Origin: Escherichia phage LF82-41
Sequence record: PV660463
Direction: 5' to 3' (one strand)
Length of the DNA: 64,000 bases
This document shows positions 1,567 to 62,330 of the stretch, one piece after another. The notes under the pieces were generated by a model. The model did no database searches. It saw only the letters and a program-made list of their open reading frames with translations, and had not been told where the DNA came from. Every line of letters starts with the position of its first letter. The stretch's first letter is position 1. The translations under genes were made by a program, and so were the position numbers.

Positions 1567-1598
1567 TCTATAATATCATGTTTGAAGCAAAAGTAAAC
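1567..1598 (-). promoter_or_regulatory. early-type sigma70 promoter (GTTTAC-N17-TGaTATTAT), family 1
   Basis: minus-strand GTTTAC at 1593-1598, TATTAT at 1570-1575, conserved AGACCTATC downstream; upstream of motA. Confidence 0.55.
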
Positions 1599-1635
1599 TT
1601 TATTTTGGGCTCTTTTTAAAAAGCCCTGGTAAAAT

Positions 1636-1851
1636 TTACAAACTCATTTCTTTAATAAGGCCAATAAGTTTTGCCTTTTTAGAACGAAGCTTTTCTAAAT
1701 GACGTCCATTTGAACCGCGAACCACTAAAGAATTGATTTCAACTTCTAAGAAATTTAATTCTTCAACAAGTGCTTTACGAGGAGCATTCATACCAGGTTT
1801 AACTTTACCGAAACGAGTAGTTGTGTTTTGGGTTAATTTCATTTTAGACAT
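1636..1851 (-). CDS. hypothetical small protein (71 aa)
   Basis: ORF track; own family-1 promoter upstream. Confidence 0.5.
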   Translation of the reverse strand: MSKMKLTQNTTTRFGKVKPGMNAPRKALVEELNFLEVEINSLVVRGSNGRHLEKLRSKKAKLIGLIKEMSL

Positions 1852-1887
1852 TTTATTTCTCCAATTTGGTTGTTTTGTTTTGATAGG

Positions 1888-1919
1888 TCTATAATATCAC
1901 GTTTGAAGCACATGTAAAC
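1888..1919 (-). promoter_or_regulatory. early-type promoter, family 1
   Basis: GTTTAC (1914-1919) - N17 - TATTAT (1891-1896), AGACCTATC downstream. Confidence 0.5.
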
Positions 1920-1930
1920 TGTTTTGTGAG

Positions 1931-1963
1931 AAAAAAAAAGCACAAAAGGGAGCTTCGGCTCCC
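1931..1963 (-). terminator. rho-independent terminator after gene 52
   Basis: GGGAGC-ttcg-GCTCCC hairpin (1948-1963) followed on minus strand by T-run (plus A-run 1931-1939). Confidence 0.6.
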
Positions 1964-2039
1964 TAATCATGTTTGTCCAACCAATACAGCCAAATCACTA
2001 GTGCAGCTATTGCACCGAGAAATCCTAAGGCTAGGGCAC

Positions 2040-3365
2040 TCAAAGTGCCTCCAAGTCTTTAGTGTACTCTGTCACAACATCAGTAGACTTCCAATACTCA
2101 TTTTCTTCTTTCTTAGCTTTAGCTTCTTCTGCTAGTTTACGTGCTTCGTCGGAAGTGATATGGAAGATGTTAAGACCTACCAGTTTATCGACATGTTCTT
2201 TATACATTTCGATTTGTGCTAGCTCTTCAGTCAAAGCTTTACGAGTCTTGCCCTGAATCACGATTTCACCGTTGATAACTTTTTTGATGAAGTGTGCCTT
2301 AGCAAAAGCAAGTTTAAATGCTTTTTCGGATTCAAGGATTTTGTTGTCAATACGTTTCTGAACGTAAGTCTTACGGACTTCAACAAAATCTTTGATTAAG
2401 TCCACTACGTTATCGTAGACAGCTAATTTACCCTTTTCATTAATCACTGTGATGTTTTGTGAACGACGTTCGATGAGACTAAAATCTTTCATGATTTTTT
2501 CATGACGTAGCTCTTCATCATCAGGAAGCGAGTATTCTTTGCGGAACTTCACCTTAAACCCAAAGCCGTGTTCACCGCAATCATCTTCCCATGAGATTAG
2601 ACCTTTGTCTTCCAACGGGTCAAGAACTTTACTCACATACGTTTCACGGTCGAATTTATATGGGATTTCAGTTATCTGCATTTGAGTACGAGATGTGAAC
2701 TTGTATGTTCCGTGAATCTCATAACGCCCATCAACTTCATGCACTTCACCATGGAATTCCGGGAATTCAACTTTTGGCTTAGTGACATTTTTACCTTGAA
2801 GAGCTTGTAATACAGCCTTTTTTACCGATTTAAAACTATGAGGCAGAATATTTGTTGCGTAACCGGTTGCAATACCAGATACACCATTCAAAAGAACTGT
2901 CGGAATAATAGGAAGATAGAATTTTGGTGGAATATGTTCTTTATCTTCATGAGCTGGAGCATATTCAGTATCTTTATATACGTTATAGAAATTTTTACTT
3001 ACACGAGCAAAAATATAACGAGATGCTGCAGCTTTTTGGACTGTTCTAGAACCAAAGTTGCCTTGACCATCTAACAGTGGATAGTTGTTGTTCCATGTGT
3101 TAGCCATTAATGCACCTGCATCTTGTGCAGAAGATTCACCATGGTGATAACCTAAATCTGCGACACCGCCTGCAATTGACGCAAGTTTATGAAATTTTTC
3201 TTTATTACCACGAGCTAAATCTAACGCACGATGAACCACAAAACGTTGAACCGGCTTAAATCCATCAATCATATTTGGGATTGCACGGTTTTCAACGGTG
3301 TACATCGCATATGCTAAGGCTTCGTTATCAATAATACTTTTTAGATTACGAGAATTCAATTGCAT
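2040..3365 (-). CDS. 52: DNA topoisomerase II medium subunit (GyrA-like)
   Basis: 441 aa; motif IPNMIDGFKPVQRFVVH typical of type IIA topo A-subunit; T4 gp52 size and position. Confidence 0.9.
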   Translation of the reverse strand: MQLNSRNLKSIIDNEALAYAMYTVENRAIPNMIDGFKPVQRFVVHRALDLARGNKEKFHKLASIAGGVADLGYHHGESSAQDAGALMANTWNNNYPLLDGQGNFGSRTVQKAAASRYIFARVSKNFYNVYKDTEYAPAHEDKEHIPPKFYLPIIPTVLLNGVSGIATGYATNILPHSFKSVKKAVLQALQGKNVTKPKVEFPEFHGEVHEVDGRYEIHGTYKFTSRTQMQITEIPYKFDRETYVSKVLDPLEDKGLISWEDDCGEHGFGFKVKFRKEYSLPDDEELRHEKIMKDFSLIERRSQNITVINEKGKLAVYDNVVDLIKDFVEVRKTYVQKRIDNKILESEKAFKLAFAKAHFIKKVINGEIVIQGKTRKALTEELAQIEMYKEHVDKLVGLNIFHITSDEARKLAEEAKAKKEENEYWKSTDVVTEYTKDLEAL

Positions 3366-3369
3366 ATTT

Positions 3370-4946: not shown

Positions 4947-5014
4947 GATGTTATCCTCTTTTAGATAGGACTACTATATCATAGTCCTACTTAGTTGTAA
5001 ACACTTTTATGAAA

Positions 5015-13584: not shown

Positions 13585-13610
13585 AATATTCTCCTCTTGT
13601 TTTGATAGGT

Positions 13611-13642
13611 CTATAGTATCATAGACCATAGTTGTTGTACAT
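13611..13642 (-). promoter_or_regulatory. early-type promoter, family 1
   Basis: TGTACA - spacer - TGaTACTAT + AGACCTATC on minus strand. Confidence 0.45.
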
Positions 13643-18788: not shown

Positions 18789-18835
18789 AATATTTTCCTC
18801 TGTCTTACGGACGTTAGGTCATTTAGCTGATAGGT

Positions 18836-18868
18836 CTATAATATCATGCCCTCAGGTAGTGTACACTC
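18836..18868 (-). promoter_or_regulatory. early-type promoter, family 1
   Basis: TGaTATTAT + AGACCTATC element upstream of 18788 start. Confidence 0.45.
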
Positions 18869-21996: not shown

Positions 21997-22317
21997 TTAA
22001 CTCCTTTGTTGTTTAATTACAGGTGTATTTATAATGAATTTCTTCGGGACAATAAAATATCCGAATTTAGCTAATATAACAACATCACCGTTAATTATTA
22101 CCGGAGAATAATCATCTGGAGTATTAAATTTCCAGTGGAGTCTAGTATTATATCCATCAGAGCCGAATGCTTTATTAGCCGGTCTCCCGGCTTTTTGCCA
22201 TGCATAAAAATCAAGTTTCATTTGCAACCCAATCAACCATATGTAGATGGTCTGATAATTGACTAACATGCTGAAGCTGATTAGACAGGAGCTTACAAAT
22301 AAGCTCACTGTTATCAT
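21997..22317 (-). CDS. hypothetical protein (start uncertain)
   Basis: ORF track; contains soc late promoter in its 3' part. Confidence 0.35.
   Translation of the reverse strand: MITVSLFVSSCLISFSMLVNYQTIYIWLIGLQMKLDFYAWQKAGRPANKAFGSDGYNTRLHWKFNTPDDYSPVIINGDVVILAKFGYFIVPKKFIINTPVIKQQRS
22027..22034 (-). promoter_or_regulatory. late promoter TATAAATA upstream of soc
   Basis: minus-strand TATAAATA about 30 nt upstream of soc ATG. Confidence 0.5.
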
Positions 22318-22383
22318 TTTTAAATAGCTGGTTAATACGTTTCTTGTGGGCTTTCTTAAGCTGGCGTTTATTTAAACGAGCCA

Positions 22384-25881: not shown

Positions 25882-25944
25882 TTTAACTCCTTAGTTGATT
25901 TGATAGGACTACTATACTATAGTCCATCTATAATGTAAACAAGT

Positions 25945-26623: not shown

Positions 26624-26649
26624 TTCAATTTCCTCTATAGTTGATAGGT

Positions 26650-26681
26650 CTATAGTATCACTACCATAGACCCCTGTAAAC
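26650..26681 (-). promoter_or_regulatory. early-type promoter, family 1
   Basis: GTTTAC (26676-26681) - N18 - TACTAT + AGACCTATC. Confidence 0.45.
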
Positions 26682-26693: not shown

Positions 26694-26897
26694 TTATTCC
26701 TCGTCTTCATGCTCGTAAGCATGTTCTTCAGATTCACGGTCGCAGTCTAAACAAGTCGCATTATCATATGCATCGAAAACAGCTTCGTCTTCATAGACGC
26801 TACAACCACACACTACACATTCTACTTCTTCCATTTTAGATTTCCTCTTTACGCCAATCGGATTCAAAAACTTTCTTATCATCAACAAATGCTTCAA
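26694..26897 (-). CDS. acidic Cys-rich small protein (67 aa)
   Basis: CVVCGC...CLDC pattern. Confidence 0.45.
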   Translation of the reverse strand: MKHLLMIRKFLNPIGVKRKSKMEEVECVVCGCSVYEDEAVFDAYDNATCLDCDRESEEHAYEHEDEE

Positions 26898-27358: not shown

Positions 27359-27382
27359 TTTGTTCTCCAGTAGTTGATAGGT

Positions 27383-27413
27383 CTATAATAACACAACTAC
27401 TGGAGAAGTAAAC
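27383..27413 (-). promoter_or_regulatory. early-type promoter, family 1, flanked by 12-bp inverted repeat
   Basis: GTTTAC (27408-27413) - N17 - TATTAT (27385-27390); CTCCAGTAGTTG / CAACTACTGGAG arms flank. Confidence 0.45.
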
Positions 27414-29319: not shown

Positions 29320-29328
29320 GATAACTCC

Positions 29329-36667: not shown

Positions 36668-36708
36668 GTTGAAGTCCTCATCGGTAAGTAGGTGTATTGT
36701 ACACTATT

Positions 36709-36852
36709 CTAGTTAAAGCATTCATACTTTGCCTGTAGACCAATCATAATCCATCCAATTACAAGTGTTGGAATCATTACCGGAGCCGTTAAGCTCCAGT
36801 AGATAGTCATGACAAGCATCAATAGTAAAAGTCCTATTGTTATTGCTTTCAT
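36709..36852 (-). CDS. small membrane protein (47 aa)
   Basis: Manual translation MKAITIGLLLLMLVMTIYWSLTAPVMIPTLVIGWIMIGLQAKYECFN; ATGA overlap with SIS gene stop. Confidence 0.35.
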   Translation of the reverse strand: MKAITIGLLLLMLVMTIYWSLTAPVMIPTLVIGWIMIGLQAKYECFN

Positions 36853-37484: not shown

Positions 37485-37524
37485 ATTTCTCTCATTTAAT
37501 TAGTTTACCGTCCATGGCATTATA

Positions 37525-40236
37525 TCAAAAATCAAACATATCGAACAGAGATGCTTTCTTCTCGTAATCGAGTTTCGCTGCTGATGTGAATCCTTCAAGT
37601 GGTTTAATAAATGTCTTCTCAAGGAGAACAGTGTAGTCCATCCAATGAAGTACGTCGTCTTTAATTAAATCTGTGATTTCAGTACCAGAAGGCCATGCGA
37701 TACATTTATCACCGAACGGGTTTCCTTCACGTAAAGGCAGAACATATACTTTTTCACCTTCTACAACTTGTGGAGCATCAATATTACCTTTGATAGCTCG
37801 GTTATATGTCAGAATTCCACGAATATGGAACGGGCATTTGGGACCAGGGAATCCACCTACATCATATTTAGCAATGTTATTCGCAGAAGATACCGACGCG
37901 ATGCTAATATAATTCAATTGACGGAATTCTTTTTCAAACTCTTTAAAATATTCTTGTAATGATTCTTCACCTTCCTGAAGCATACGACGAATACATTCCT
38001 TAAGAGCTTTCTGTACTGCTTTAGGAGTCGAAGATTTCTGAGTCTCTAGACCCATGATTTTGAGTTTAGGCTCAGCGTAACGAGTACCTTCCATATCCCA
38101 CACGTTTAATGCATAACGTTTCTTACCAGTCCAGAATCCGCCAATACCTTTAGAACCAAGCGGAGGACCAGCGATAGCTTCTCGGTCCATGAACATTAAG
38201 TGTTGTTTATTGTTCATGTATTCACACATTTCACGGAAACCTTTATCAATAGCTGGTTCCATACGTTCACGTGCGAACTTATCTAAGAAGTCTACCCAAT
38301 GGTTGGTATCACGGAATTTAGATTCACCAACCTTATCGATAATTTTATCAGCAGATACGTAAATAGAGTCTGTATCACCATAAAGAACGAAAGCTTCACC
38401 TTCTGTACCACAAACTTCATTCAGATATTCATTAACTTTACGTTCAATCCACTGTAAAGCCATTTGACCAAATGTTGTGATTGCAGTAGCATTACGCAAA
38501 TCATAATAACGGAACCAAACGTTACCAAGTGCACCATAAAGCGAGTTGATGAGCAATTTACGGTTAATTTGTGCAGTCATACCTGCAACTTCAGTACGTT
38601 GAGCTCTAAACAACATTTCATTAAGAGATTTAGCAGACAACTTTTTAATCTTTTCTTTAATCTCATCGCTGAAGTCGAAACGATAATCAACATCTAATGG
38701 TTCGTCAACAGAAAGATTAGGATTATGCAATGCCTCTTTAATTATTTCACCATTACGTTGAGCTGCAAGCATGTAACCTTTATGTTCTTTACGTTGATTA
38801 AAGACCTTAGTGATTTCAGTTGGAACTACACCATCACGGTCTTTATAATACATCATGCCGTTAGGAGAGCAACTGTACACATCTGAAGGACGTTCAGCGA
38901 TTGCGTTAATATAATCATGCAGTGGAGCTACTTTAAACGTTCCTGCTATTGTTTCCGGGCTAATATTCACTTGGCGAATAATACTTGGATACAGGGATGT
39001 AAGGTCGAAACTCATTACATATTTGTATCGATTTGGAATAGGTTCCTTAACAAAAGCACCTGGATAAGGTTGAACCGGGTGAGAACGACCTTGTGGAATC
39101 ACCTTGCTCTGCTCTTTAAGGCTATTAAAAATAATAGCATCCCATGTTTTAATTGGGCTAAACACAGATTGAATCTGTATCTTAGCATAATAACCCATGT
39201 CCAAACTCAAGTTGATGAACTGACGCTTAGCATCAATTTGCAATACACGATACACGTCGATAATGTTATAAGAAATATACCGTTGGTGATTGCTTTCACG
39301 AAGCTTAGAAATAGGGCCGTCATATTTCAGTTTACCAACATTCAATTCAAATTCTGAAATGTAATCCAGAGAATACGACGGTTGATTGGTAAAAGAGAAT
39401 TTTTTGTAAAGGTCAATGTAATCAAGAACAGAGATACCGAACATTGTAATGATTTCACGAGAACCATACATGTTTTCGATAACTTTAACACGAGTTTTAC
39501 GATGTGGTGATAAACGTTTCGCAGTAGATTCGCCAAAAATATTCTTGATTCGGTTATACACATATGGAATATCAAATGACTCAACGTTCCATCCAGTCAA
39601 AATGACAGGAGTTTTCTGTTGCCAGAAGTTGAGATATTCCATCAACAATTCTTTTTCGTTATCGAACGGCATATAAATGATTTTATCGATAATTTCAGAT
39701 GGAACTTCATCACCGCCTTGTTCTTGAAGCTTAGCCGCAATTTCGATAGACCATTCTTCTACATTACCATACGGAGAATTCAATAGATCAAATACGTAGA
39801 ACCTGTCGTCAATTGAGTCATAATGGGTGATAGCATCAATCGGATGTTTTGCTTGTGACGGCTCAGGGAACCCATCCGGAGATGTTACTTCGATGTCGAA
39901 GTTAGCCACACGAATTTTTGTATGGTCGTATTTGATTTCATAGTTATAAGTGTCAGACAAATACGCCAATTTGAAATCGTCCATGCCAAGTGCTTCAAGT
40001 CCGATATCTTCCATGCGTTTAATCCATTGGGAGGCATCACGCATATTAGCGAACAACTTACGAGTACACGGTTTACCGTAGATATCGAAATATTTCGTAG
40101 CCTGACTTTCTGGACAATGAGCAAACAGTGATGGTTTATATTCTACTTCACGAGTACGTTCACGGCCATTAGAATCGATGTAACGTTCAAAAATTGAATC
40201 ACCAATCTGTTCAACCGTTAAGTAAAATTCTTTCAT
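37525..40236 (-). CDS. 43: DNA polymerase (family B)
   Basis: 903 aa; exo motifs (FDIE), pol motifs (SLYPS, YGDTDS); T4 gp43 size and synteny. Confidence 0.95.
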   Translation of the reverse strand: MKEFYLTVEQIGDSIFERYIDSNGRERTREVEYKPSLFAHCPESQATKYFDIYGKPCTRKLFANMRDASQWIKRMEDIGLEALGMDDFKLAYLSDTYNYEIKYDHTKIRVANFDIEVTSPDGFPEPSQAKHPIDAITHYDSIDDRFYVFDLLNSPYGNVEEWSIEIAAKLQEQGGDEVPSEIIDKIIYMPFDNEKELLMEYLNFWQQKTPVILTGWNVESFDIPYVYNRIKNIFGESTAKRLSPHRKTRVKVIENMYGSREIITMFGISVLDYIDLYKKFSFTNQPSYSLDYISEFELNVGKLKYDGPISKLRESNHQRYISYNIIDVYRVLQIDAKRQFINLSLDMGYYAKIQIQSVFSPIKTWDAIIFNSLKEQSKVIPQGRSHPVQPYPGAFVKEPIPNRYKYVMSFDLTSLYPSIIRQVNISPETIAGTFKVAPLHDYINAIAERPSDVYSCSPNGMMYYKDRDGVVPTEITKVFNQRKEHKGYMLAAQRNGEIIKEALHNPNLSVDEPLDVDYRFDFSDEIKEKIKKLSAKSLNEMLFRAQRTEVAGMTAQINRKLLINSLYGALGNVWFRYYDLRNATAITTFGQMALQWIERKVNEYLNEVCGTEGEAFVLYGDTDSIYVSADKIIDKVGESKFRDTNHWVDFLDKFARERMEPAIDKGFREMCEYMNNKQHLMFMDREAIAGPPLGSKGIGGFWTGKKRYALNVWDMEGTRYAEPKLKIMGLETQKSSTPKAVQKALKECIRRMLQEGEESLQEYFKEFEKEFRQLNYISIASVSSANNIAKYDVGGFPGPKCPFHIRGILTYNRAIKGNIDAPQVVEGEKVYVLPLREGNPFGDKCIAWPSGTEITDLIKDDVLHWMDYTVLLEKTFIKPLEGFTSAAKLDYEKKASLFDMFDF

Positions 40237-40294
40237 TTAATTTCCTTTAGACGAGTTATTGTCTTTTGTTTGTTGATGAAATTATTATACTCCA

Positions 40295-40314
40295 AATGGG
40301 ACCGAAGTCCCATT
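40295..40314 (-). terminator. stem-loop after regA
   Basis: AATGGGAC-cgaa-GTCCCATT hairpin. Confidence 0.35.
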
Positions 40315-40317
40315 GCT

Positions 40318-40695
40318 TTAATTACCAATTGTATATTTTGCTTTCAAAGTCCAGTCATCTTTCTGTTTAAAAGAGATAACACGGAAGTTATTAGTCAGGC
40401 CAAACAGATCTTCACGAGCAGAGTCTTCAATAACAATTAATCCCCAGTCTTCAAGCAACTGAGCAATCGAATCACGTCGCTGATAGTCTTCACCATCGAT
40501 ATCAACTTGTCGCCCGTCCATACGCAGCATTTCTTTAAAGTGGACGATGTAATATTTACCTTGCTTTTGGAGGATATGACAGGACTGATAAAGAACTTTA
40601 TCCTTGTTATTAGCGATGCCCATACGGGTCAAAGTCTCTTTGACTTTCAGAAAATCTTCAGGGTTCTTCAATTTAATTTCAATCATTTTTACCAT
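40318..40695 (-). CDS. regA: translational repressor RegA
   Basis: [40 protein letters not shown] matches remembered T4 RegA. Confidence 0.85.
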
Positions 40696-41252
40696 TCCAA
40701 TGCTAATTTTTTAAATTGTTTTTGTTCTTTCACGTTTTTGGTAACTTCTTTGAGAAATTCATCAGTGACCATGGCCTTCAGTTCTTTAAGGACTATTGGC
40801 AACTTGTTATTTTTTTCAAGGAGCCGCTTATACTCGGTAGCATCGTTCATGTTGATTGTGTAATGTTTCATCAACAGTTTGATAACTAGTAACTCTGAAG
40901 TGTCTTCTACTAGTTTAGCCCATTTAGAGAATCGACGACCACGCGGAATTGCCGCCATCATATAGTTGAAGTGTGCTTCATCACTTAATTCAGAACCGAC
41001 TAAGTTCATCATGTAAACAGCTGGCATACATTCTGGGAACTGGGATAATGAGTTCTCAACCATAAATTTTGAGTAGTCGACCTGAGCAATTGACATCGAT
41101 TTCTTTTCATTAATAGCATTAATGATTTTAAAGAATTCATTCTCAGGTTTTTCTTTAAACATATCAGCACATTTTTGAATCGCATCAGCGTCATTAGACT
41201 TCCATGCAATTTGGTGCTCGTTAAGCTGGACGTCATCATCAAATAAGTTCAT
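40689..41252 (-). CDS. 62: clamp loader small subunit
   Basis: 187 aa; synteny regA-62-44-45. Confidence 0.8.
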
Positions 41253-41253
41253 A

Positions 41254-42216
41254 TTATTTCCAAGTCAGTTCACAGGTCAGTTGAAGAAGCATATACATAA
41301 CATGTAATTCAATATTACTTGCTAATCCGTGAAACTTATTATTTTCGCCTGCAATTTCATAAAGCGAAATAATACTTTTACCAGGTGCAACTTGGTCATA
41401 ACATTCTGAAACTAATTTATCGATGAACCATGAATAATCTGCGGCATATTTTGGAGCTAATGCACGAAGCTGTTTTATATCTTTGTTCTTCATTGCTTCG
41501 ATAACATCAGAGACTGTGCCACGGTCATTAGTTACGATAGACAAAATACCAGCATCAAGAACACCTTTAGACGAGTACTGGTCTAATTGACCAATTGTAC
41601 GACGAAAGTCCGGGAAGTTCTTTTTAACCAGAGCTGCAACAACTTTCATATCAGCGATTTCGATATTTTCGTTCTTACAGATTTCAACCATACGATGAAT
41701 CATTTTCTTCATCATCGAGATTTTATCTTCTTCGGTTGGACGTCCGAATTCGATAACTCGACAACGGCTACGTAATGGTTCAATAATTCCATCAATATTG
41801 TTAGCAGTGATAATAATAGAGCAGTTACTAGAGAATTCTTCCATGAATGTACGAAGGTGACGTTGTGATTCGGCGAGACCACTACGGTCGAATTCATCAA
41901 TAACAATAACTTTAGGCTTGCCTTCCATTGAGACTGAACGAGCGAATGCAGTTAACGGACCACGCACAAAATCAATCTTACAATCAGAGCCGTTGACGAA
42001 CATCATTTCGGCATTGATATCATTACATAATGCTTTTGCTACGGTTGTTTTACCTGTACCAGGAGAAGGAGAGTGCAAAATAATATGAGGAAGTTTTCCT
42101 TTAGATACTAAAGACTTGAATGTTTCATGGTCATACGCAGGCAGAATACATTCGTCAATGGAAGAAGGACGATATTTCTGTTCTAGAATGTGTTCTTTGG
42201 AATTGATAGTAATCAT
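41254..42216 (-). CDS. 44: clamp loader large subunit (AAA+)
   Basis: 320 aa; Walker [11 protein letters not shown]; synteny. Confidence 0.9.
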
Positions 42217-42291
42217 GTAATTTTCCTCATTATCATTAATCTGGAGGATTTCTCCTCCATAATCGTACTACATTAAACGTAAAGCTTTGAC

Positions 42292-42978
42292 TTAGAAGTC
42301 GTGAGTAGAATCGGCTTCCATTGCAATAACGTAACTTACTTGAGAGCTTTCAAACTTAGCTGCAACTTTATCACCAGCTCCCCACAACATTACTTTATAG
42401 TTACCTGGCTGGATTTTCATATTAGCCATATTGATTACGAAGTTAAAGTTATTAGAACCATCATAATCGGTAAGAGTCAAAGAATACTTAGGACGAGTCA
42501 AGCCAGAATCTTCAACTTTATTGTAACCATTGATAACAATTTTACCATCTTTATTTGTAATAGCAATTGTATCAATCTGGAGACCACGTGAAACTCGAAG
42601 CAATTGTTGAAGGTCTTCAGCTTTAATTTCAGTAATCACAGAAGCCACCGGGAATTGAATTGGCTTATTAGGAAAAACAATGGTGCTCTTGTCGGCAGCA
42701 GGCCAATAAACTGTGGAACGTGTATCTGCAATTTTAATATTGCCATCAGTGTGCATTGAAATTTCAGCATCGTCAGACACTAGACTCAAAATGCTTAAGA
42801 AGCTATTCAAATCATAAAGTGCTACGTCAAAATCAATTTCATCAGAGATATTTGCTTCCGCGTAAGTGGTGCCATTAACTGCACGGGTCATAATAAATTT
42901 ACCTTGACTCAGCAGAATACCGGAGTTAATAGAGGCAAAGTTTTTCAGAATAGCGATAGTATCTTTAGACAGTTTCAT
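42292..42978 (-). CDS. 45: sliding clamp
   Basis: MKLSKDTIAILKNFASINSGILL matches remembered T4 gp45 N-terminus; start at Met-6 of track ORF. Confidence 0.9.
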   Translation of the reverse strand: MKLSKDTIAILKNFASINSGILLSQGKFIMTRAVNGTTYAEANISDEIDFDVALYDLNSFLSILSLVSDDAEISMHTDGNIKIADTRSTVYWPAADKSTIVFPNKPIQFPVASVITEIKAEDLQQLLRVSRGLQIDTIAITNKDGKIVINGYNKVEDSGLTRPKYSLTLTDYDGSNNFNFVINMANMKIQPGNYKVMLWGAGDKVAAKFESSQVSYVIAMEADSTHDF

Positions 42979-43020
42979 TTTATTTCCTTTCAAGACAATT
43001 CAAAGTTTATAACAAATTTA

Positions 43021-43437
43021 TTATGCAGCAACCATCTGCTTTTTAATAGCTTCAGGCAGTGATTCAATATATTCTGGAATTTTAGAAGCAACAATTTCGC
43101 CAGCTGCAATTAGTTGTTCGTCGGCATCAACACAATAGAAATCTTCCAGGCGCTCAGAACCATCTTTATCAAGAACGATTTTTCCACCAGCTTCAATAGA
43201 ATCTTTATAGTGCTTACGCATCAGATGAATCCACATATCAGATACATCATTATCAATAAAACCATAAATCATAAAACGAGTTTCTTGCGGCAAAGATTGA
43301 AGCTTTTTAGCACTTGCGTCATCACAATGCAGGACCCATGCTTTACGAACACGATTATGGTTATGTGGGTTAGCGTCAGTACGGATAGAAGTAACTTTCA
43401 GATCAGCAGCAGTGAAACCTTTAGCAGTAGTAAACAT
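43021..43437 (-). CDS. RpbA-like (position-based) protein (138 aa)
   Basis: Between 45 and 46 as T4 rpbA. Confidence 0.4.
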   Translation of the reverse strand: MFTTAKGFTAADLKVTSIRTDANPHNHNRVRKAWVLHCDDASAKKLQSLPQETRFMIYGFIDNDVSDMWIHLMRKHYKDSIEAGGKIVLDKDGSERLEDFYCVDADEQLIAAGEIVASKIPEYIESLPEAIKKQMVAA

Positions 43438-43449
43438 ATTATTTCTCTC

Positions 43450-43650
43450 TTATTCGTAGAAGTCGGTAACTGTCCATGCGGAATTGCGATTAGACATTAT
43501 TTTATTATACTCATCTTTAAAAGCAGATTTGAGCATTTGTTCAGTAACAATATGTTCTTCACCTGAAAATGTATTGGTCAAAACATATTTTTTAATTTCA
43601 GGGACAACGAGAAGATGTTGTCCGGTTGAATACTCCATGTTGTTCTCCAT
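43450..43650 (-). CDS. hypothetical protein (66 aa)
   Basis: ORF track. Confidence 0.45.
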   Translation of the reverse strand: MENNMEYSTGQHLLVVPEIKKYVLTNTFSGEEHIVTEQMLKSAFKDEYNKIMSNRNSAWTVTDFYE

Positions 43651-43692
43651 TTAATTTGATGTGGTCATTATAACCACATCGTGTTAAAGCGT

Positions 43693-45381
43693 TTATGAAA
43701 CAGTCATTACCGTAAATCGTCCAACTTTGCTCATCTGAAGATGTTGTCCATAAGCTTGTGGGTCATGGTCTCTGTGACTAATTATAAACACGTTTGCATC
43801 GGTTAGAGAGTTAAGAATTGTTGAAATAGCTTTAATACCTTCAGAATCAGTCGCGGAATCCATGACTTCGTCCATAATTAATGTATTGATTCTAACACCA
43901 GAGACCTTTTCAGCAATATCTCGCCATGTAAACAACAATGCGATATCGATACGTGCCTTTTCACCTTGACTAAATGAAGCATAACTAAAATCTTCACGAC
44001 CACGTGATTTTATAGATTCATTGAATTCTTCATCAATAGAAAACACGTAATCGGCTTCCATGATTTTAAGATAATGGTTAATCTGCTTGTTGAACAGAGG
44101 CACATATTTTTTAATGATAGCACCTTTAATACCAGAATCTTTTAACATATCTGTGATAATACCACGATGGTATTTTTCAAGAACGATATCTGATTTTGTT
44201 TTAATGATTTTATCAAGTTCTTTTTGAAGCAAAGCTATCTCATCGGCATGGTCGATAAATTCCGCCGAGGCTTGCTCTATTGCAGCTTTAACTTTCTTAG
44301 CTTTATCAATAGTGGCAATCATTGCTTGTTTCTTGGTACGGATATCGGATGCAAGGTCCTGTTTAGTCTTAACATTAGCTCGATATTCGTCCACTAGGAC
44401 ACTCAGATTATCTCTGTGGCAGGTAAGTTGCTCGAATGAGTGATTACATTCATGAAGCTTATCGGTAATCTTAGAGACAATAGGGTCACCCTGGTGCAAC
44501 TGTGATGCGCAAGTAGGACATGTACCGCCATCATGATACATCTTAATAACTTTGTTATATGAGTCAATTTTAGATTTAATCAAGAATGCCTCTTGTCCGA
44601 TCTTGTTGAATGCCTCAGTAGGGTCTTCGTCAAGAACGATATTAAGTAGACGCTCGTTAGCTTCTTCAATTTCTGCTTTTAATGAACGAGCTTCTTTGGC
44701 TAGGTCGTCATACATATTCTGTAGACGCGCTACATTATCGCCAGATAATTTCTTTTGACGTTCGATATTCTCGTTATAAATCTTAATTTGTTGGATAATA
44801 CCATCTTTCTTGGCATCGAGAACTTGTCCCTGGGAATTAAGTTCTCGAACTTGAGACTTATTGATTTTATCCATTTCAGCTAGTGTTCCAACTTCTAATA
44901 AGTCTTCAACAAGCTTTCTGCGAGCAGGGGTGCTAAGAGCCATGAAAGGGGTATACCCTGCCGTCCCAAGCACAACGATCTGTTTAAAAGACGCGTATGA
45001 CATTCCGATGCTACGTTCAAATTCTTCTTGGAAGTCACGACTGCTGGCAGATTCATCAAGACGAACACCGTCAACGGAGATTTCGAAAATATTGGGCTTT
45101 TGGCCTCGTTTAATGAAGTATTTTTTATCATCGAATTCCATCCAAAGCTCAACTAAGAGCTCTTTCTTGTTCGTGCTATTAATGATTTGTCCTTTCTTAA
45201 CATCACGAAATGGTTTACCGAAAAGTCCGAAAGTAATGGCTTCTAACATCGTAGATTTACCACCACCATTTTTACCAGTGATTAATGTCTTTTGGACTTT
45301 ATCTAATTGGATATCAATAGGATTCCCACCTACCGACATGATGTTTTGATAACGAACACGATTTAATTTAAATGATTTCAT
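43693..45381 (-). CDS. 46: recombination endonuclease subunit (Rad50/SbcC-like ATPase)
   Basis: 562 aa; Walker A GKNGGGKST, coiled coil with CPTC zinc hook, C-terminal signature region. Confidence 0.9.
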   Translation of the reverse strand: MKSFKLNRVRYQNIMSVGGNPIDIQLDKVQKTLITGKNGGGKSTMLEAITFGLFGKPFRDVKKGQIINSTNKKELLVELWMEFDDKKYFIKRGQKPNIFEISVDGVRLDESASSRDFQEEFERSIGMSYASFKQIVVLGTAGYTPFMALSTPARRKLVEDLLEVGTLAEMDKINKSQVRELNSQGQVLDAKKDGIIQQIKIYNENIERQKKLSGDNVARLQNMYDDLAKEARSLKAEIEEANERLLNIVLDEDPTEAFNKIGQEAFLIKSKIDSYNKVIKMYHDGGTCPTCASQLHQGDPIVSKITDKLHECNHSFEQLTCHRDNLSVLVDEYRANVKTKQDLASDIRTKKQAMIATIDKAKKVKAAIEQASAEFIDHADEIALLQKELDKIIKTKSDIVLEKYHRGIITDMLKDSGIKGAIIKKYVPLFNKQINHYLKIMEADYVFSIDEEFNESIKSRGREDFSYASFSQGEKARIDIALLFTWRDIAEKVSGVRINTLIMDEVMDSATDSEGIKAISTILNSLTDANVFIISHRDHDPQAYGQHLQMSKVGRFTVMTVS

Positions 45382-45632
45382 ATGTATTCTCTTCGAATGA
45401 AGTCCTCTACATATTTTAACATGTCATCCCTATCAGCAAAATATTCATCTAGTTCTGCATACATAACAACACCTGGTGCGTACTCACAGGTAACATACAT
45501 TGTTCCAAAGAAACGAGGAGTTGATTCCTCGTAATTCTCAGTCCATTCAACGATACCAATATAACCGTCACCAATACTAAATTCGTGACGATGGATTTCA
45601 TAGTCAGTCTTCGTCATTATACGCATCCTCAA
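45378..45632 (-). CDS. hypothetical protein (84 aa)
   Basis: ORF track; T4 46.1 position. Confidence 0.45.
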   Translation of the reverse strand: MRMRIMTKTDYEIHRHEFSIGDGYIGIVEWTENYEESTPRFFGTMYVTCEYAPGVVMYAELDEYFADRDDMLKYVEDFIRREYI

Positions 45633-45861
45633 TACACGCTTCAGCCATTTTAAGAATAGAGCCAGGAGTATCGTTGTCCATTATATTAAAGCTAAATTCA
45701 ATAGCCCAGTCGGTACAGACATGAACGGCTTTAACTTCATTGCCTTCAACGCGTAATGGCTCAATCCAATACTTGATAGTGTTCTCGAATCCATCATCAT
45801 CTTTAACGTCTATTTCAACTTCAAGCCCAAGCCCAGCATTGTTAAATTCATCTAAAGTCAT
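45604..45861 (-). CDS. hypothetical protein (85 aa)
   Basis: ORF track; T4 46.2 position. Confidence 0.45.
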   Translation of the reverse strand: MTLDEFNNAGLGLEVEIDVKDDDGFENTIKYWIEPLRVEGNEVKAVHVCTDWAIEFSFNIMDNDTPGSILKMAEACIEDAYNDED

Positions 45862-46877
45862 TGTGTTGCCTCAATATAAAGTTCGTTGGAATATTTGACC
45901 AGCGCTTCTCTGTCTTCGTCTGAGATATCTGGAATCGCGTCAATATATTCTTTAATGATATCTTGAAGTGATTTAATCTCGATTTCCTGGTCGTCATCAG
46001 ATTCAACACTGTTATCAACTTTAGAAACCATACGAAGAGAGTGAACTACTTTTTCAAGTTCAGATTCAAACTTAGTCAACTCTGAATCAATTTCTGATAC
46101 TATAACACGTACGGCTAGATTAGTATAATCAGAATAATTGATTTTGCCTTTAAATGGATAAGTGATTCGTCGATGCCATGTCGTTTCATTAGGAATAAAT
46201 TCCATACGTTCAACATCAGTGTCAAATACCCAGAATCCACGTGGGTCGTTCTCGTCACCTGCAGTAAGGGTCCATGGTGTCCCAATATATTTGACGTTAG
46301 CAGCTTCAGAGATTGTGTGGAAGTGGCCGGACCAGACTTGTTTATAGGTCTTTAAGAAATCAGGTTCAAGCCCATGAGACTTCATTCCTTTATAGAAATA
46401 AAAGCCATTCAGTTCCCAGTGCCCAACACAATACGCAGCAGAAGAAGTCTTGATATGCTCTAAGATTTCACCTGTATTTTCTTCACACATCCATGGAACG
46501 ATATCAATCAGACATCCATCAAAATCTACAGTAGTTGGATGTTCGTAAATAGTAAAGTTTTCAAATTGAGTTAACAATTCAGAAACAGTGTTAGGTGTTA
46601 TTGTATTCTTAAACGCCATGTCATGGTTTCCTATCGTGACATGAACGTGAATGCCTGCTTTAGAAATCATATCAACGATTTCACGATTGAATTCCATTGT
46701 ACGATGTGTTATTGCTTTACGGACGTCGAACCAATCACCGTACTGAATCCAAGTTTTAATCCCGTGTTTCTTAGAGTATTCAATTGCTTGACGAATACCA
46801 TCACGTTGAATATCTTGAACCCATGGGTCATCTTGTTTGACTCCGATATGGAAGTCTCCTAAGTGCAAAATTTTCAT
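45858..46877 (-). CDS. 47: recombination endonuclease subunit (Mre11/SbcD-like)
   Basis: 339 aa; N-terminal LHLGDFHIG phosphoesterase motif; synteny. Confidence 0.9.
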   Translation of the reverse strand: MKILHLGDFHIGVKQDDPWVQDIQRDGIRQAIEYSKKHGIKTWIQYGDWFDVRKAITHRTMEFNREIVDMISKAGIHVHVTIGNHDMAFKNTITPNTVSELLTQFENFTIYEHPTTVDFDGCLIDIVPWMCEENTGEILEHIKTSSAAYCVGHWELNGFYFYKGMKSHGLEPDFLKTYKQVWSGHFHTISEAANVKYIGTPWTLTAGDENDPRGFWVFDTDVERMEFIPNETTWHRRITYPFKGKINYSDYTNLAVRVIVSEIDSELTKFESELEKVVHSLRMVSKVDNSVESDDDQEIEIKSLQDIIKEYIDAIPDISDEDREALVKYSNELYIEATQ

Positions 46878-46921
46878 ATTATTTCCTCATTAGTTAATTC
46901 ATTCTATCATCCGTTTATAAA

Positions 46922-46947
46922 GCAAAAAAGGAACTCCGAAGAGTTCC
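46922..46947 (-). terminator. rho-independent terminator
   Basis: GGAACTC-cgaa-GAGTTCC hairpin (46930-46947) followed by T-run on minus strand. Confidence 0.55.
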
Positions 46948-47120
46948 TATCCACATAGTACACCGTACAGAGGCTCATTTGGACTTTTAAATCGAATGGG
47001 CTTGTACGTAATAGTTCCTTCGGCTTTAGCTTTATCATAAGACTCTTTAAAACGTCTCATTCTTTCTGCTTTGCCTTTACGGATTTTATCGAAATTTTCA
47101 GAAGTCGGGATGTTCATCAT
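46947..47120 (-). CDS. small basic protein (57 aa)
   Basis: Manual translation MMNIPTSENFDKIRKGKAERMRRFKESYDKAKAEG...; below track cutoff. Confidence 0.35.
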   Translation of the reverse strand: MMNIPTSENFDKIRKGKAERMRRFKESYDKAKAEGTITYKPIRFKSPNEPLYGVLCG

Positions 47121-47159
47121 GCATAAGCACCTCTCGGAAAATGCCTAAATCGATTTCTC

Positions 47160-47381
47160 TCATCGTTTCCACCATTTCTTAACTTGAAATGAATCAACCC
47201 ACACGAGTTGTTTTGGGTCTGCCTTTACAATAGGCGGACAAATTTCTGTAATAGAACCGTCGTGATATTCCTTTTCAGAAATTTTAACACAAAGAGGACC
47301 ACCCAATTTAACGGTGAACCCTGCGTTCAGCTTCAGACGTTTAAACTTTGTTTGAACTAGCGCCATTAATGATGTCCTCAA
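47160..47381 (-). CDS. hypothetical protein (73 aa)
   Basis: ORF track. Confidence 0.45.
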   Translation of the reverse strand: MRTSLMALVQTKFKRLKLNAGFTVKLGGPLCVKISEKEYHDGSITEICPPIVKADPKQLVWVDSFQVKKWWKR

Positions 47382-47664
47382 TAGCCTGACGAGTAGTAAC
47401 CCACTGGATTTTAATTAACTTGTCATTATATGGTTGTCGTAGAATATCCCGAGATTTCTTAATAGCGTATTCGTAAGCTTCGAAGTTGTTTTGAATTGCT
47501 GCTTCTTGAGCATGAGCATAAAGACGGTTTAGTTCAAAACGATTCTTTTTAAGAATCTTTTCGGATTTTTTACGTGCTTCAGCTTCGTTTTTCTTTTGGA
47601 TTTCTTGTAGCATTTTAGCTACTGCATCTTCTGCTTCTTTATTTTCAATAATCTCGGTAGTCAT
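47341..47664 (-). CDS. hypothetical protein (107 aa)
   Basis: ORF track. Confidence 0.45.
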   Translation of the reverse strand: MTTEIIENKEAEDAVAKMLQEIQKKNEAEARKKSEKILKKNRFELNRLYAHAQEAAIQNNFEAYEYAIKKSRDILRQPYNDKLIKIQWVTTRQAIEDIINGASSNKV

Positions 47665-47665
47665 A

Positions 47666-47881
47666 TTATCTCATTAAATTAAAATAAAAACGTCCGTCCT
47701 CTTCAATACAGAACTCGTACTCAACTGGAGTCCCATTTATCGAAAATGACACGTCATGTGGGTTCAAAGGGTCGATGTCAAAATTAATTTTAAATTCTCG
47801 GCCCAACAGTTTTACCAAATAAGGGATTGCTTCGTCAAAAGGTTCTTCTAAGTAGTTAGAGATATCAATTGTCATCCTCAT
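47666..47881 (-). CDS. hypothetical protein (start trimmed to avoid overlap with gene 55)
   Basis: ORF track; internal Met after gp55 stop. Confidence 0.4.
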
Positions 47882-48440
47882 ATAAAAAATCCAAACTAGG
47901 CGAATCGCTAACAACTTCCTTCTTTTCAGCCCCAGGAGCTTTATAAGCGGATTCTTCATAATGCGTCATTTTATCGTAGATGTCTTGAATAAACGTTTCA
48001 TCTACCAACGCTACCATATCATCGTCATGACTGTCGTAGACGTTATGAACGAAGTAACTATATTTCTTTGCAACTTCCTTACGTTCTTTTTTGATACGTT
48101 GGACAAAAGCATTAAAACAAGCTCGAGTTATGTATGCATGTGGGTTATTGTACTTAGTTTCGTCGAAATTATGAAGTCCCTTAATAGAGGCTTCAATCCC
48201 ATCTGCAATCATCTCCTGCTTCCAAGACTGGGTATATCCTGAAAAGTTGAAACGTTTGGACAGGCCTTCGGCGATAAGCATAATTGCTAAACCGATGGTA
48301 TCATTCTGACGAATAATTTTGTTTGGGTCTTTATTATTTAAGAGCTCCTTTTTCCACTCGATTATAGCAGCGAGAAGCTCTTTATTATTCACATAGTTAT
48401 TTTTAGGTTTTTGTTCAGTCATAAGTACCTCTTGGCTCAA
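47865..48440 (-). CDS. 55: late-transcription sigma factor
   Basis: 191 aa; T4 gp55 size and position. Confidence 0.85.
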
Positions 48441-48494
48441 TTCATAGGTCTATTATATCATAATATTTAGAGACCTATCTTAAAGCACGAGATA

Positions 48495-55900: not shown

Positions 55901-55918
55901 TTAAAATTTTCTCGCAGG

Positions 55919-56215
55919 TTATTGTTCTACCCATGAACAAGAGACTTCAAAATCAGGACCACCGTATTCCCAGTGATATTCACCAACAGGAATCCAGTCA
56001 CCGTGCTCGTTTTCTTCATAGTCCTCAGGCTCAAGGCCAACGAATCGCCATTGGACACCAATGATTCGATTACCCATCATTACTCGAAATTCGCCCCATG
56101 GATTATCGATAGCATACTGAATATCGTTCTTGGCACGAGAGCACATTTCTTGATATAATAAAGCTTCTAATTCACCCTGGTCATAAGGGCCAGGGAAAGT
56201 TAAATCAATACTCAT
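55919..56215 (-). CDS. hypothetical protein (98 aa)
   Basis: ORF track. Confidence 0.45.
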   Translation of the reverse strand: MSIDLTFPGPYDQGELEALLYQEMCSRAKNDIQYAIDNPWGEFRVMMGNRIIGVQWRFVGLEPEDYEENEHGDWIPVGEYHWEYGGPDFEVSCSWVEQ

Positions 56216-60209: not shown

Positions 60210-60271
60210 AACTATTTCCTCAGATTGAATTGGAACTCAAAACCATTATAACCCGTCCTTGGGTAAAGCGT

Positions 60272-60799
60272 TTATGCGTGAACCGTCTTTAAACGTTCTT
60301 CAAATTTCCGAAGAGTACTAATACGTTCTGCTTTCTGTTTTGTATAGTTTGCAATACGTTCTGAAGTGAGAGCGTATCGTTCGTTTACTGTTTCTTTCAT
60401 GAAGTCAGGGATTTCACGAGAAGCTTTAATTTCATCAAACTTATCGAGTACTGCCTGGTCTTCAGCGATTAAATTTTCATACATCTCGATATCTTTCTTG
60501 ATAAACTCGATATCTTCCTGAGTTACTTTGGATAAACGAGATGCTTTATCCTTTTTGTACTGCTCGTTAGTTTCACGAGACCAGAATAATGTACGTTTTT
60601 TGTTAGTGTTTTTGTAGACTTCCACAATTCCAACTGAATCGATGATAACAATCCAATTCCAGCGAGATTTGAAAATCTGACCTCCATCCACAGTAATCTC
60701 GTTACCATAAGCAACGTCATTAAAGAACTTGCTCTGTGCTTCAGATTTAAATTTACCGTCGTTATAATTTACCAGGTTGAAAATATCTTTAGCGTTCAT
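60272..60799 (-). CDS. hypothetical protein with C-terminal coiled coil (175 aa)
   Basis: ORF track; family-1 promoter upstream. Confidence 0.5.
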   Translation of the reverse strand: MNAKDIFNLVNYNDGKFKSEAQSKFFNDVAYGNEITVDGGQIFKSRWNWIVIIDSVGIVEVYKNTNKKRTLFWSRETNEQYKKDKASRLSKVTQEDIEFIKKDIEMYENLIAEDQAVLDKFDEIKASREIPDFMKETVNERYALTSERIANYTKQKAERISTLRKFEERLKTVHA

Positions 60800-60824
60800 G
60801 TTTTACCTCCAGTAGTTGATAGGT

Positions 60825-60855
60825 CTATAATAACATAACCATAGACCTTGTAAAC
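60825..60855 (-). promoter_or_regulatory. early-type promoter, family 1
   Basis: GTTTAC (60850-60855) - N17 - TATTAT (60827-60832) + AGACCTATC. Confidence 0.45.
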
Positions 60856-60857
60856 AA

Positions 60858-61145
60858 CTAAAAGAAACTTTTTTCGGTATTTTTTCCACTGAACCAAACA
60901 GACTTCGGGATTTTTTGTAATTTTTCAGATTTAAGTTTCTCTTCATGTTCTTTCTTATATACACTCTTGTCGTACTGGAGCATCTCTATGGCATTCTTTT
61001 GCAAATGATCTAAGGTAATTAAGGCTTTAGTTTTTCCTTTCAAGGAAGAGTCCTGGCGAACCTCCTCGCTATATTGCATTGTAGAACTAACCATACGATG
61101 TGCATAGAGTTCGACTGCGGCTTTAATTTTTTGCATAAAATCCAT
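60858..61145 (-). CDS. hypothetical protein (95 aa)
   Basis: ORF track. Confidence 0.4.
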   Translation of the reverse strand: MDFMQKIKAAVELYAHRMVSSTMQYSEEVRQDSSLKGKTKALITLDHLQKNAIEMLQYDKSVYKKEHEEKLKSEKLQKIPKSVWFSGKNTEKSFF

Positions 61146-61283
61146 AACATATCCTCTTTGATTTGTACATCATTATTTTTAAATATTTCTATGCCCTCAG
61201 TAGGTTCCTGGTGTCCTTCTTTGAGGTAAGCCATATGATTATTCATCTTTATGGCTTTTGTTACCTCAGAACTTCCTATAAGC

Positions 61284-62285
61284 TTATTTCAGTAAAGTAA
61301 CTTCCGAGATTTCTTCCCAACCATCTTTATCAGTTGAAATAAAATCTGCTACATAAAGAGCCGTACGTAATGATACATTGCGAAGACGAGATACGTTAGC
61401 CTTCATCCAGGACAATGCTTTGTACGTTTCAGCATCAGTCAAGCCACGTTTCTGCATCATGTCAGTAGATAATATTACATCTTCAACTCGAACCATAATC
61501 TCTTCATTAGAGTGTACTCCAAGGTCGAGATACACTGAACGAGATACTAAAGCTTGAAGGTGCGGAGCAAGTTTCGAACCGCGTTCTAACTCTTTATCAA
61601 TATCAACGTTTGTAATGAAAACGATAGTACCTTCAAACTCAAATTCTTTATCGATACCCTTATCATCAAGATAAGATGACGCAGTGCTCCAACAAACTTT
61701 GCGTTTATCGCCGGTATCTAATGCGGCTTTAAGAAGGTTCAGGATGTCCATATCTGAGAATACGTCAACGTCATCGATTAAGAGAACGCTGTCTGCATCA
61801 CGGTTGAGCCAAAGTTGTTCGTAAAGGCCAATACCAGAGATTTTACCATTAATGCTTTTGTATTTGATGAAACCATTATCATTAGCATTACTAAGTGCTT
61901 TATCCAGAGAATACGTCTTACCAATACCAGCTGCACCTGAAATAATGAGTGAACGAATTTTGCCATCGATAATGCCATTCGTCATCATGTTCATTACTTT
62001 AAAGCGTTTGTTGATACGAGTTTTCATATCTTCAGTGCTTTCAACAACTGCAACTGGTGATGTCTCAACTCCTTCCATTACGATGTCTGATTTGAAGACC
62101 CATACTCCACGTTCAGAACCATCAATCATAACGAAAATTTTACCGTCACCTAAGTGGGAACATTCAGGATTAAGCTTTGCCGGGAACCATGTCTTTGTGG
62201 CAACATAAGAACCAGAGATTTCGTTATTACGATAAATACCTTTTTTGATTTGAACGTTGAACATTTTATTCTCCAATTTACTCAT
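61284..62285 (-). CDS. P-loop ATPase (333 aa)
   Basis: Walker A ISGAAGIGKTYS and Walker B-like VLLIDDVDV. Confidence 0.55.
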   Translation of the reverse strand: MSKLENKMFNVQIKKGIYRNNEISGSYVATKTWFPAKLNPECSHLGDGKIFVMIDGSERGVWVFKSDIVMEGVETSPVAVVESTEDMKTRINKRFKVMNMMTNGIIDGKIRSLIISGAAGIGKTYSLDKALSNANDNGFIKYKSINGKISGIGLYEQLWLNRDADSVLLIDDVDVFSDMDILNLLKAALDTGDKRKVCWSTASSYLDDKGIDKEFEFEGTIVFITNVDIDKELERGSKLAPHLQALVSRSVYLDLGVHSNEEIMVRVEDVILSTDMMQKRGLTDAETYKALSWMKANVSRLRNVSLRTALYVADFISTDKDGWEEISEVTLLK

Positions 62286-62300
62286 TTCGTTTCGATAGGT

Positions 62301-62330
62301 CTATAGTATCATATCCTAAAAGCATGTACA
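62301..62330 (-). promoter_or_regulatory. early-type promoter, family 1
   Basis: TGTACA - N16 - TACTAT + AGACCTATC. Confidence 0.4.

Follow-up and report, generated by a model that had tools for sequence, protein, structure and literature searches.

A short sequence element recurs eight times on the minus strand of a 64-kb stretch of the genome of Escherichia phage LF82-41 (sequence record PV660463), and in our view it is probably the core of early promoters that depend on sigma70 in an RB69-like T-even phage, set in composite cassettes and conserved in two layers. The core would comprise the TG of an extended -10, the -10 hexamer TAYTAT, a discriminator reading AGACCT, and a start A followed by TC, and the conservation of the block after the -10 would reflect a class consensus around the start together with recombinational homogenization, with hairpins in a subset of the copies. 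If T4 is a guide, transcription from these promoters would depend on the unmodified host RNA polymerase and begin within the first minutes after infection. Early promoters of the RB69 type have already been catalogued, and in that respect the observation is real but ordinary. Below, "the window" means the whole 64-kb stretch, and copies are numbered by their presumed start A, taken as +1 (Table 1).

The plus-strand form of the element, GATAGGTCTATARTATCA, has six exact matches in the window (at 1561, 1882, 13604, 18829, 26643, and 62294) and none in any of 100 dinucleotide-preserving shuffles of it; with up to three mismatches allowed there are 11 matches, against 0.11 expected, which rules out chance or low sequence complexity as the cause of the copies. 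Two further copies with a single mismatch, TGT for TGA, at 27376 and 60818 bring the total to eight. Read on the minus strand, TGATAYTATAGACCTATC occurs six times exactly and twice as the TGT variant, while the plus strand has none and about 0.1 would be expected by chance; likewise, the minus strand holds all eight occurrences of the 10-mer TAGACCTATC. The eight copies share the form TG(A/T)TAYTATAGACCTATC, their invariant part is only TG.TA.TATAGACCTATC, and spacer and leader vary. All are intergenic, each ahead of a minus-strand gene. An earlier note on this DNA had described eight dispersed, conserved minus-strand copies lying upstream of motA, an srd-like gene, and a lipoprotein gene, among others; the count holds, and the RB69 annotation gives the three genes as motA, srd, and imm.1 (the "lipoprotein"). 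Remoter relatives are found at 48443 (two mismatches), at 4964 and 14184 (three mismatches), and at 25902 (the TAGTCCTATC allele). A full-text literature search for the literal strings TAGACCTATC, TAGTCCTATC, and ACAACTATCAACT found no phage paper.

The window is 95 to 98% identical to Mosigvirus genomes such as those of RB69 and Shigella phage Shf125875, and it was compared with the whole RB69 genome, whose position 1 corresponds to window position 6794. The catalogue of Nolan, Petrov, Bertrand, Krisch, and Karam (2006, Virol J 3:30, PMC1524935) holds 58 predicted RB69 early promoters (Pe), with coordinates in Additional file 3; the sites extracted from RB69 all end at the A of CCT-A, the start in the view of those authors. 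All eight window copies are orthologues or recombinants of these sites (3' ends at 6813, 12039, 19711, 20489, 53634, 54969/55247, and 162664). They share the loci, nearly the whole sequence, and the architecture of A-rich tract, GTTTAC, TG, and -10, and differ from RB69 in that one promoter is duplicated (1884), one is chimeric (62296), and one has been replaced (26645). The genes downstream, motA, cef, srd, imm.1, ORF040c, nrdC.8, and nrdC.10, are orthologues of T4 early genes, and the copies stand in sense orientation to them. At E<0.01, a profile derived from the RB69 sites matched the window 23 times, in every case on the minus strand and in front of an early-gene orthologue, and it found no early-type promoter in the replication block from about 28 to 48 kb. 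The register of the model also agrees with T4 usage, as its start for the GenBank feature "early promoter Pe133295" falls at exactly 133295. The block lacking early-type promoters (approximately 28000 to 48000) carries genes 41, uvsX, 43, 45, 46, and 47, which fits delayed-early or middle expression, as in T4.

Every copy has a -35 hexamer (GTTTAC in five, GTGTAC in two, and ATGTAC in one), a spacer of 17 or 18 bp, a TGn extended -10 with TG at -15/-14, and a TAYTAT hexamer, followed by AGACCT and, exactly 7 nucleotides (nt) past the hexamer, the presumed start A. With an RB69 Pe matching each copy, this architecture supports the claim of the earlier note that these are early promoters. A-rich runs such as AAAATAAA, ACAAAACA, and TAAAAAGT lie upstream; Nolan 2006 (PMC1524935) describes both an A-rich tract at about -40 to -45 and the TG as traits of RB69 early promoters. 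The distance from presumed start to ATG is 23 to 34 nt, except at 27378 (19 nt) and 18831 (40 nt), and an AT-rich tract, a sigma70-like promoter, a Shine-Dalgarno (SD) sequence, and an ATG are present within about 100 bp. The T4 early promoters (Liebig and Ruger 1989; Wilkens and Ruger 1994; reviewed in Hinton 2010, PMC2988021) share GTTTAC, the 17- to 18-bp spacer, TGn, and TAYNAT, and T4 and the window also agree in starting at an A some 7 nt past the -10, in reading CTATC there, and in having inverted repeats that surround the -10.

The earlier note had also observed that conservation runs about 10 bp past the -10, into the initially transcribed region. The conservation past the -10 is confirmed, while its reach into the transcript is mostly not: of the nine conserved bases after the hexamer, six precede the presumed start and form the untranscribed discriminator, which leaves AUC alone for the RNA if the start is the A of CCT-A-TC. 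When downstream base frequencies were read with a model truncated at -7, which avoids circularity, 37 RB69 promoters had C at -3 (0.76), C at -2 (0.70), T at -1 (0.84), A at +1 (0.84), T at +2 (0.81), and C at +3 (0.78), and each position from -3 to +3 carried about 0.8 to 1.15 bits, equal to some positions of the -10. Beyond the Nolan model, but in the same 58 sites, T stands at +2 in 43 and C at +3 in 38. The same letters occur around the start in T4 (119 kb scanned), more weakly, and no CTATC-type start pattern was present in 32 predicted RB69 middle promoters. The sequence C-C-T-A-T-C is thus a property of the early promoter class in the RB69 lineage, and CTATC is weaker in T4. That this is more than sigma70 needs, as had been suggested, is true, though partly reported before: a preference for C at -3 to -1 in RB69 appears in the promoter description of Nolan 2006 (PMC1524935), and extra consensus regions in T4 early promoters are mentioned by Hinton 2010 (PMC2988021). 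This first layer of conservation, CTATC at the start, probably represents optimization of the discriminator and start site of a very strong promoter.

The same positions bear on the suggestion that early mRNAs carry the block as a conserved 5' leader, read as RNA in connection with, for example, stability, processing, or capping. High conservation of the start A and of the UC(A)A after it is what a leader element would show. Such a role would nevertheless be most surprising, given that only 3 of the 18 conserved bases are transcribed with a start at the A of CCT-A-TC, that leaders diverge from about +6 among copies and orthologues alike, and that an Rfam scan of the whole window matched no family. 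With only AUC transcribed and the leaders diverging so early, we set aside the leader reading proposed in the earlier note.

The second layer of conservation is seen when alleles of the block are compared between genomes. AGACCTATC is one of two main alleles, the other being AGTCCTATC; RB69 has eight exact copies of the latter and six of the former, and in the window the latter stands at 4964 and 25902. The T4 promoters of motA, nrdC.8, nrdC.10, and imm.1 read TGGTACTAT-ACAACTATC (hexamer TACTAT), whereas the window has AGACCTATC at all four. The dominant T4 core, TGGTACTAT-ACAACTATC-AACTACTGATAC, is found in 8 of 25 scanned T4 promoters, a ninth having ACAACCATC, in contrast to the window core TGATAYTAT-AGACCTATC. 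T4 has a single exact copy of the 18-mer (TGATACTATAGACCTATC), before denV, with its start at 65378; this copy adjoins the internal-protein gene ipII, carries a 10-bp spacer-SD stem (TCTCCTGTAG/CTACAGGAGA), and has a promoter core otherwise typical of RB69- and JS98-like phages. JS98-like genomes in IMG/VR contain many copies of the 18-mer type among the matches listed by a 15-mer scan, which mixed chance single matches with multicopy T4-like genomes and served for sequence context, not for counts.

Paralogous promoters within a genome can also resemble each other more than they resemble their orthologues. In the window, the motB.1 and nrdC.3 promoters, 42 kb apart, carry GAACCTATC and GAATCTATC (GAAYCTATC) with the same leader, and in RB69 both carry CTTTCTATC, so that the two are more alike within each genome than either is to its own orthologue. 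They belong to a second promoter family, seen at 15689 and 58158 (also at 59178 and 15134), which shares the spacer AACCAAGGATGGTTGGAG and has TATAAT but no TG; over about 60 nt, with leader and SD, the motB.1 and nrdC.3 members differ only by one C/T change in the discriminator. The motA promoter retains the block in at least five lineages, with leaders that diverge among them.

Junctions between window and RB69 sequence fall inside promoter cores at 1607/1843, 26661, and 62296, and three of the eight copies coincide with the boundary of an insertion, deletion, or replacement. A repeat of approximately 75 bp, extending from GTTTAC to ATGTCTAAA, bounds the cassette at 1608 to 1842; RB69 has a single promoter at this position. 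At the imm.1 promoter, homology to RB69 ends at CTATC and all sequence upstream has been replaced. Promoter 62296 is a fusion: its upstream half is that of RB69 Pe 55247 and its leader that of RB69 Pe 54969, with RB69ORF102c, which lies between those two sites, missing.

Because alleles are lineage specific, paralogues are alike, and junctions lie inside promoter cores, the exact identity of the 18-mer within a genome is, to judge from these sequences, the result of concerted evolution. Homologous recombination or gene conversion between the dispersed cassettes would homogenize the core within a lineage, and the same recombination would shuffle genes between promoter cassettes.

Cassettes of this kind have been described as promoter-early stem-loops (PeSLs), "mobile regulatory cassettes," in RB49/phi1, T4/PST, and KVP40/nt-1 (Arbiol et al. 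2010, PMC2839356; Comeau, Arbiol, and Krisch 2014, PMC4122927); their stem-loop lies between or overlaps the -35 and -10, and they mark indel sites. As class traits, termination or attenuation of upstream transcription is claimed for the stem-loop and excision as mini-circles for the cassettes (PMC2839356, PMC4122927). By its predicted parts, each window copy is set in a composite cassette of the published PeSL type, composed of an A-rich tract, -35, spacer, core, A-rich leader, SD, and ATG. The likeness extends to the AT-rich tract, the sigma70-like early promoter with SD and ATG, the placement among small nonessential open reading frames (ORFs), and the position at indel or replacement junctions. 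The stems are unlike: those of RB49 PeSLs are G/C rich, and one has been shown to terminate transcription, whereas those in the window are short and AT rich and lack a U-run, and half of the window copies have no stem at all. RB69-like phages, moreover, stand outside the PeSL descriptions.

Inverted repeats around the -10 raise the question of base pairing. In 16 of the 58 RB69 promoters, the spacer (-30 to -13) forms a perfect stem of 6 bp or more with the segment from -9 to +4, compared with 4.1 expected when partners were re-paired at random, a procedure that in 5000 permutations never exceeded 11. The arms covary (GGACTA/TAGTCC, GGTCTA/TAGACC, GGGCTA/TAGCCC, GGATGAT/ATCATCC, and GAGAGCA/TGCTCTC), and the last of these pairs, from window promoter 49348, is GAGAGAT/TCTCTC in the RB69 orthologue. 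Across 98 distinct promoters from RB69, T4, and the window, one pairing register gave 55% paired cells, against 30 to 45% with the partner slid, and its covariation score was matched by 2 of 500 shuffles. RNA folding of RB69 promoters from -31 to +28 gave a mean z-score of -2.26, with 30 of 58 below -2, compared with -0.16 for random same-strand 60-mers. Longer stems reach the ribosome-binding site: six spacer-SD stems of at least 8 bp were found against 1.08 expected in a permutation test, all overlapping the SD, as do stems of at least 7 bp, and compensatory spacer-SD variants occur in related genomes, among the matches listed (CTCCTGTAG/CTACAGGAG, CTCCATTAG/CTAATGGAG, and CTCCAGTAG/CTACTGGAG). 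A third promoter family, ACAAACTCTTGAGAGCAGAGTATAATGCTCTC at 4193 and 49348 and at 7179 in T4, has a 7-bp stem that encloses the -10; at the same place T4 has GGGACC/GGTCCC and RB69 has GAGAGAT/TCTCTC, a clear compensatory change.

Among the eight copies, four have hairpins with z-scores of -2 or lower, formed between spacer and discriminator at 13606, 26645, and 60820 and between spacer and SD at 27378. At 13606, GGTCTATG in the spacer (13620-13627) pairs with UAUAGACC (13608-13615) in seven Watson-Crick pairs and one closing G-U pair (-9.5 kcal/mol, z -2.3); at 26645, a 12-bp stem joins 26662-26673 to 26646-26657 (-17.3 kcal/mol, z -4.0); and at 60820, an 11-bp stem joins 60838-60848 to 60821-60831 (-13.6 kcal/mol, z -2.0). 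The inverted repeat that the earlier note had placed at 27366-27403 is real and longer than was described (Table 1); its 3' arm, CAACTACTGGAGAA, comprises leader and SD, its 5' arm precedes the presumed start, and the hairpin reaches -21.1 kcal/mol (z -6.2). In these four copies, half of the set, the spacer supplies the 5' arm of a hairpin and the block supplies either its 3' arm or its loop. With the 5' arm upstream of the start, the hairpin can form only in read-through RNA from upstream promoters or in extruded DNA. Interpretation of these hairpins as intrinsic terminators was rejected for want of a U-run after the stems on the sense strand.

It might be argued, then, that the bases are conserved because they must pair with the spacer, in a functional hairpin that encloses the -10 in read-through RNA or extruded DNA and acts as an attenuator, stability element, or translational gate. 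The significant complementarity and covariation of spacer with discriminator, and likewise of spacer with SD, are what this would predict, as are the strongly negative folding z-scores of promoter regions and the fact that nrdC.8 has a spacer-discriminator stem here and, with the same leader, a spacer-SD stem in JS98-like genomes (among the matches listed). We nonetheless consider it unlikely as the cause of the conservation. Folding revealed no hairpin in copies 1563, 1884, 18831, and 62296, which carry the same invariant block; in stems that reach the SD the block is unpaired, in the loop; across promoters the 5' arm varies to fit the block and not the reverse; and the stems lack a U-run. 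Since four copies have no hairpin, pairing cannot explain the invariant block, and it is the spacer that adapts to the block.

In the one copy of the eight where a hairpin has its 5' arm ahead of the start and its 3' arm over the SD (27378; a nearby promoter, 14186, has the same form), pairing may have a more specific consequence. In T4, the ribosome-binding sites of e, soc, 49, and I-TevI are inaccessible in long transcripts and become available when transcription begins at a proximal promoter. By analogy with e, soc, and 49, burial of the SD at 27378 in read-through RNA would tie translation to the gene's own promoter. The T4 cases involve a late or middle promoter inside an early transcript, whereas the proximal promoter at 27378 is itself predicted to be early.

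A protein might also be imagined as the reader of the block. If the block were the site of a phage regulator, or were read by a phage-modified RNA polymerase, it could tune or shut off the early promoter class, and several features are in keeping with this: the block is specific to the early class, with predicted middle promoters lacking it; its variable part is lineage specific (AGACC or AGTCC here, ACAAC in T4), as expected from coevolution with a trans factor; the motA promoter retains the block across the lineages noted above as its leader diverges; and reviews call the mechanism of T4 early-promoter shut-off unknown (Hinton 2010, PMC2988021). We regard the proposal as very unlikely all the same. 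No candidate cognate protein is known, and the block has neither of the marks of an operator, namely, fixed symmetry and promoter-independent occurrence: the two main alleles differ in internal symmetry (ATAG-AC-CTAT versus ATAG-TAGTC-CTAT), and the block was never found without a -10 hexamer beside it. A single genome holds several unrelated discriminators, with a compensating spacer for each, and close relatives swap discriminators at orthologous promoters with no visible consequence. That the spacer changes to compensate for variation in the block argues for base pairing rather than protein recognition, and the regulator-binding site proposed earlier accordingly finds no support. It is a long shot that a phage-encoded factor or phage-modified polymerase recognizes the discriminator, specific to both early class and lineage (AGACCT/AGTCCT in RB69- and JS98-like phages, ACAACT in T4), as the cis element of early shut-off.

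A number of observations weigh against our own interpretation of the element as an early promoter core with two layers of conservation. We infer the start sites and early timing in this phage from homology and consensus, and the RB69 Pe sites are themselves predictions. Although T4 and RB69 use the same host polymerase, they have different bases at -6 to -2, and these positions are perhaps not optimized at all. Differences per site between the window and RB69 were 0.078 in the discriminator and 0.028 in the leader, values confounded by one-base indels and mosaic replacement and of qualitative use only; a discriminator no better conserved than the leader fits conversion and weakens the argument for purifying selection. 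The hairpins raise difficulties as well: half of the copies lack them, the absence of a U-run makes a PeSL terminator role doubtful for these copies, and the raw folding energies of sense and antisense strands do not differ significantly (p = 0.22), although the z-scores favor the sense strand.

Table 1. Copies of the element, its relatives, and associated features in the window (coordinates of the 64-kb stretch)
Feature	Coordinates	Strand	Presumed start	Remarks
Copy 1	1561..1598	-	1563	Before motA; GTTTAC at 1593-1598, 17-bp spacer, TGA TATTAT, AGACCT; +3 at 1561; orthologue of RB69 Pe 162664; no hairpin (z -0.27)
Copy 2	1882..1919	-	1884	Duplicate of copy 1, predicted to drive 71-amino-acid ORF 1636-1851; no hairpin
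Copy 3	13604..13642	-	13606	Before cef; ATGTAC, 18-bp spacer; identical to RB69 Pe 6813
Copy 4	18829..18866	-	18831	Before srd; GTGTAC, 17-bp spacer; no hairpin (z +0.7)
Copy 5	26643..26681	-	26645	Before imm.1 (signal-peptide protein); GTTTAC, 18-bp spacer; RB69 Pe 19711
Copy 6, TGT variant	27376..27413	-	27378	Before RB69ORF040c homologue; RB69 Pe 20489
14-bp inverted repeat at copy 6	27363..27407	-		Spacer TTCTCCAGTAGTTG (27394-27407) pairs with CAACTACTGGAGAA (27363-27376)
Copy 7, TGT variant	60818..60855	-	60820	Before nrdC.8; identical to RB69 Pe 53634
Copy 8	62294..62331	-	62296	Before nrdC.10; chimera; no hairpin (z +0.6)
Degenerate relative TGATATAATAGACCTATG	48443..48460	-		Before gp55-region ORF; no recognizable -35; weak profile match, E 0.063
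Sister allele TGATATAGTAGTCCTATC	4964..5002	-		Equals RB69 Pe 165745; hairpin z -2.5
Sister allele TATAGTAGTCCTATC	25902..25940	-		GGACTA in spacer; equals RB69 Pe 18970; hairpin z -2.5
Cassette absent from RB69	1608..1842	-		ORF 1636-1851 (phrog_6200), stem-loop, second promoter copy

Several individual copies and relatives have features of their own. Upstream of copy 2 is a hairpin resembling an intrinsic terminator (1947-1964), and at the position of copy 4, RB69 Pe 12039 reads AGACTTATC. Upstream of the degenerate relative at 48443, ATAGGTCT is complementary to AGACCTAT, and at 4964 the spacer TAGGACTA compensates for the altered block to give a 10-bp stem.

The genes at the junctions vary as well. 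ORF 1636-1851, which encodes 71 amino acids with no assigned function, is found in 76 phage records and is absent from others, including RB69; its place between gene 52 and motA is taken in T4 by an unrelated small gene, motA.1, and it is flanked by a duplicated promoter, SD, and first three codons. Between nrdC.11 and promoter 62296, an 88-amino-acid ORF (62383-62649, minus strand; phrog_2243) is inserted relative to RB69. The ORF at 26694-26897 (minus strand) occupies the position of gene 61.4 of T4 and RB69 (tifA, the ToxN inhibitor, beside dmd) and is unrelated to both TifA proteins; it probably encodes a 46-amino-acid, Cys-rich acidic protein, MEEVECVVCGC...CLDC...EHEDEE (phrog_13952), and represents a gene replacement at an antidefense locus with its junction in the core of promoter 26645. 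Short segments without a nucleotide match in RB69 also occur at 22033-22382, 55917-56200, and 61112-61283, none of them at a confidently predicted early promoter.

For annotation, the element marks the early transcription units of this phage. The passages on early promoters in Nolan 2006 give no explicit account of the AGACCTATC block, of its two alleles, or of how it pairs with the spacer, and the picture of dispersed promoters that evolve in concert, with spacers shaped to pair with the discriminator or the ribosome-binding site, extends published work without being new in kind. Were the discriminator a handle for shut-off, it would bear on an open question in T4 biology, and the finding would matter more. 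The promoters also mark sites where genes have been gained, lost, and swapped, including one beside the antidefense locus (dmd/61.4).

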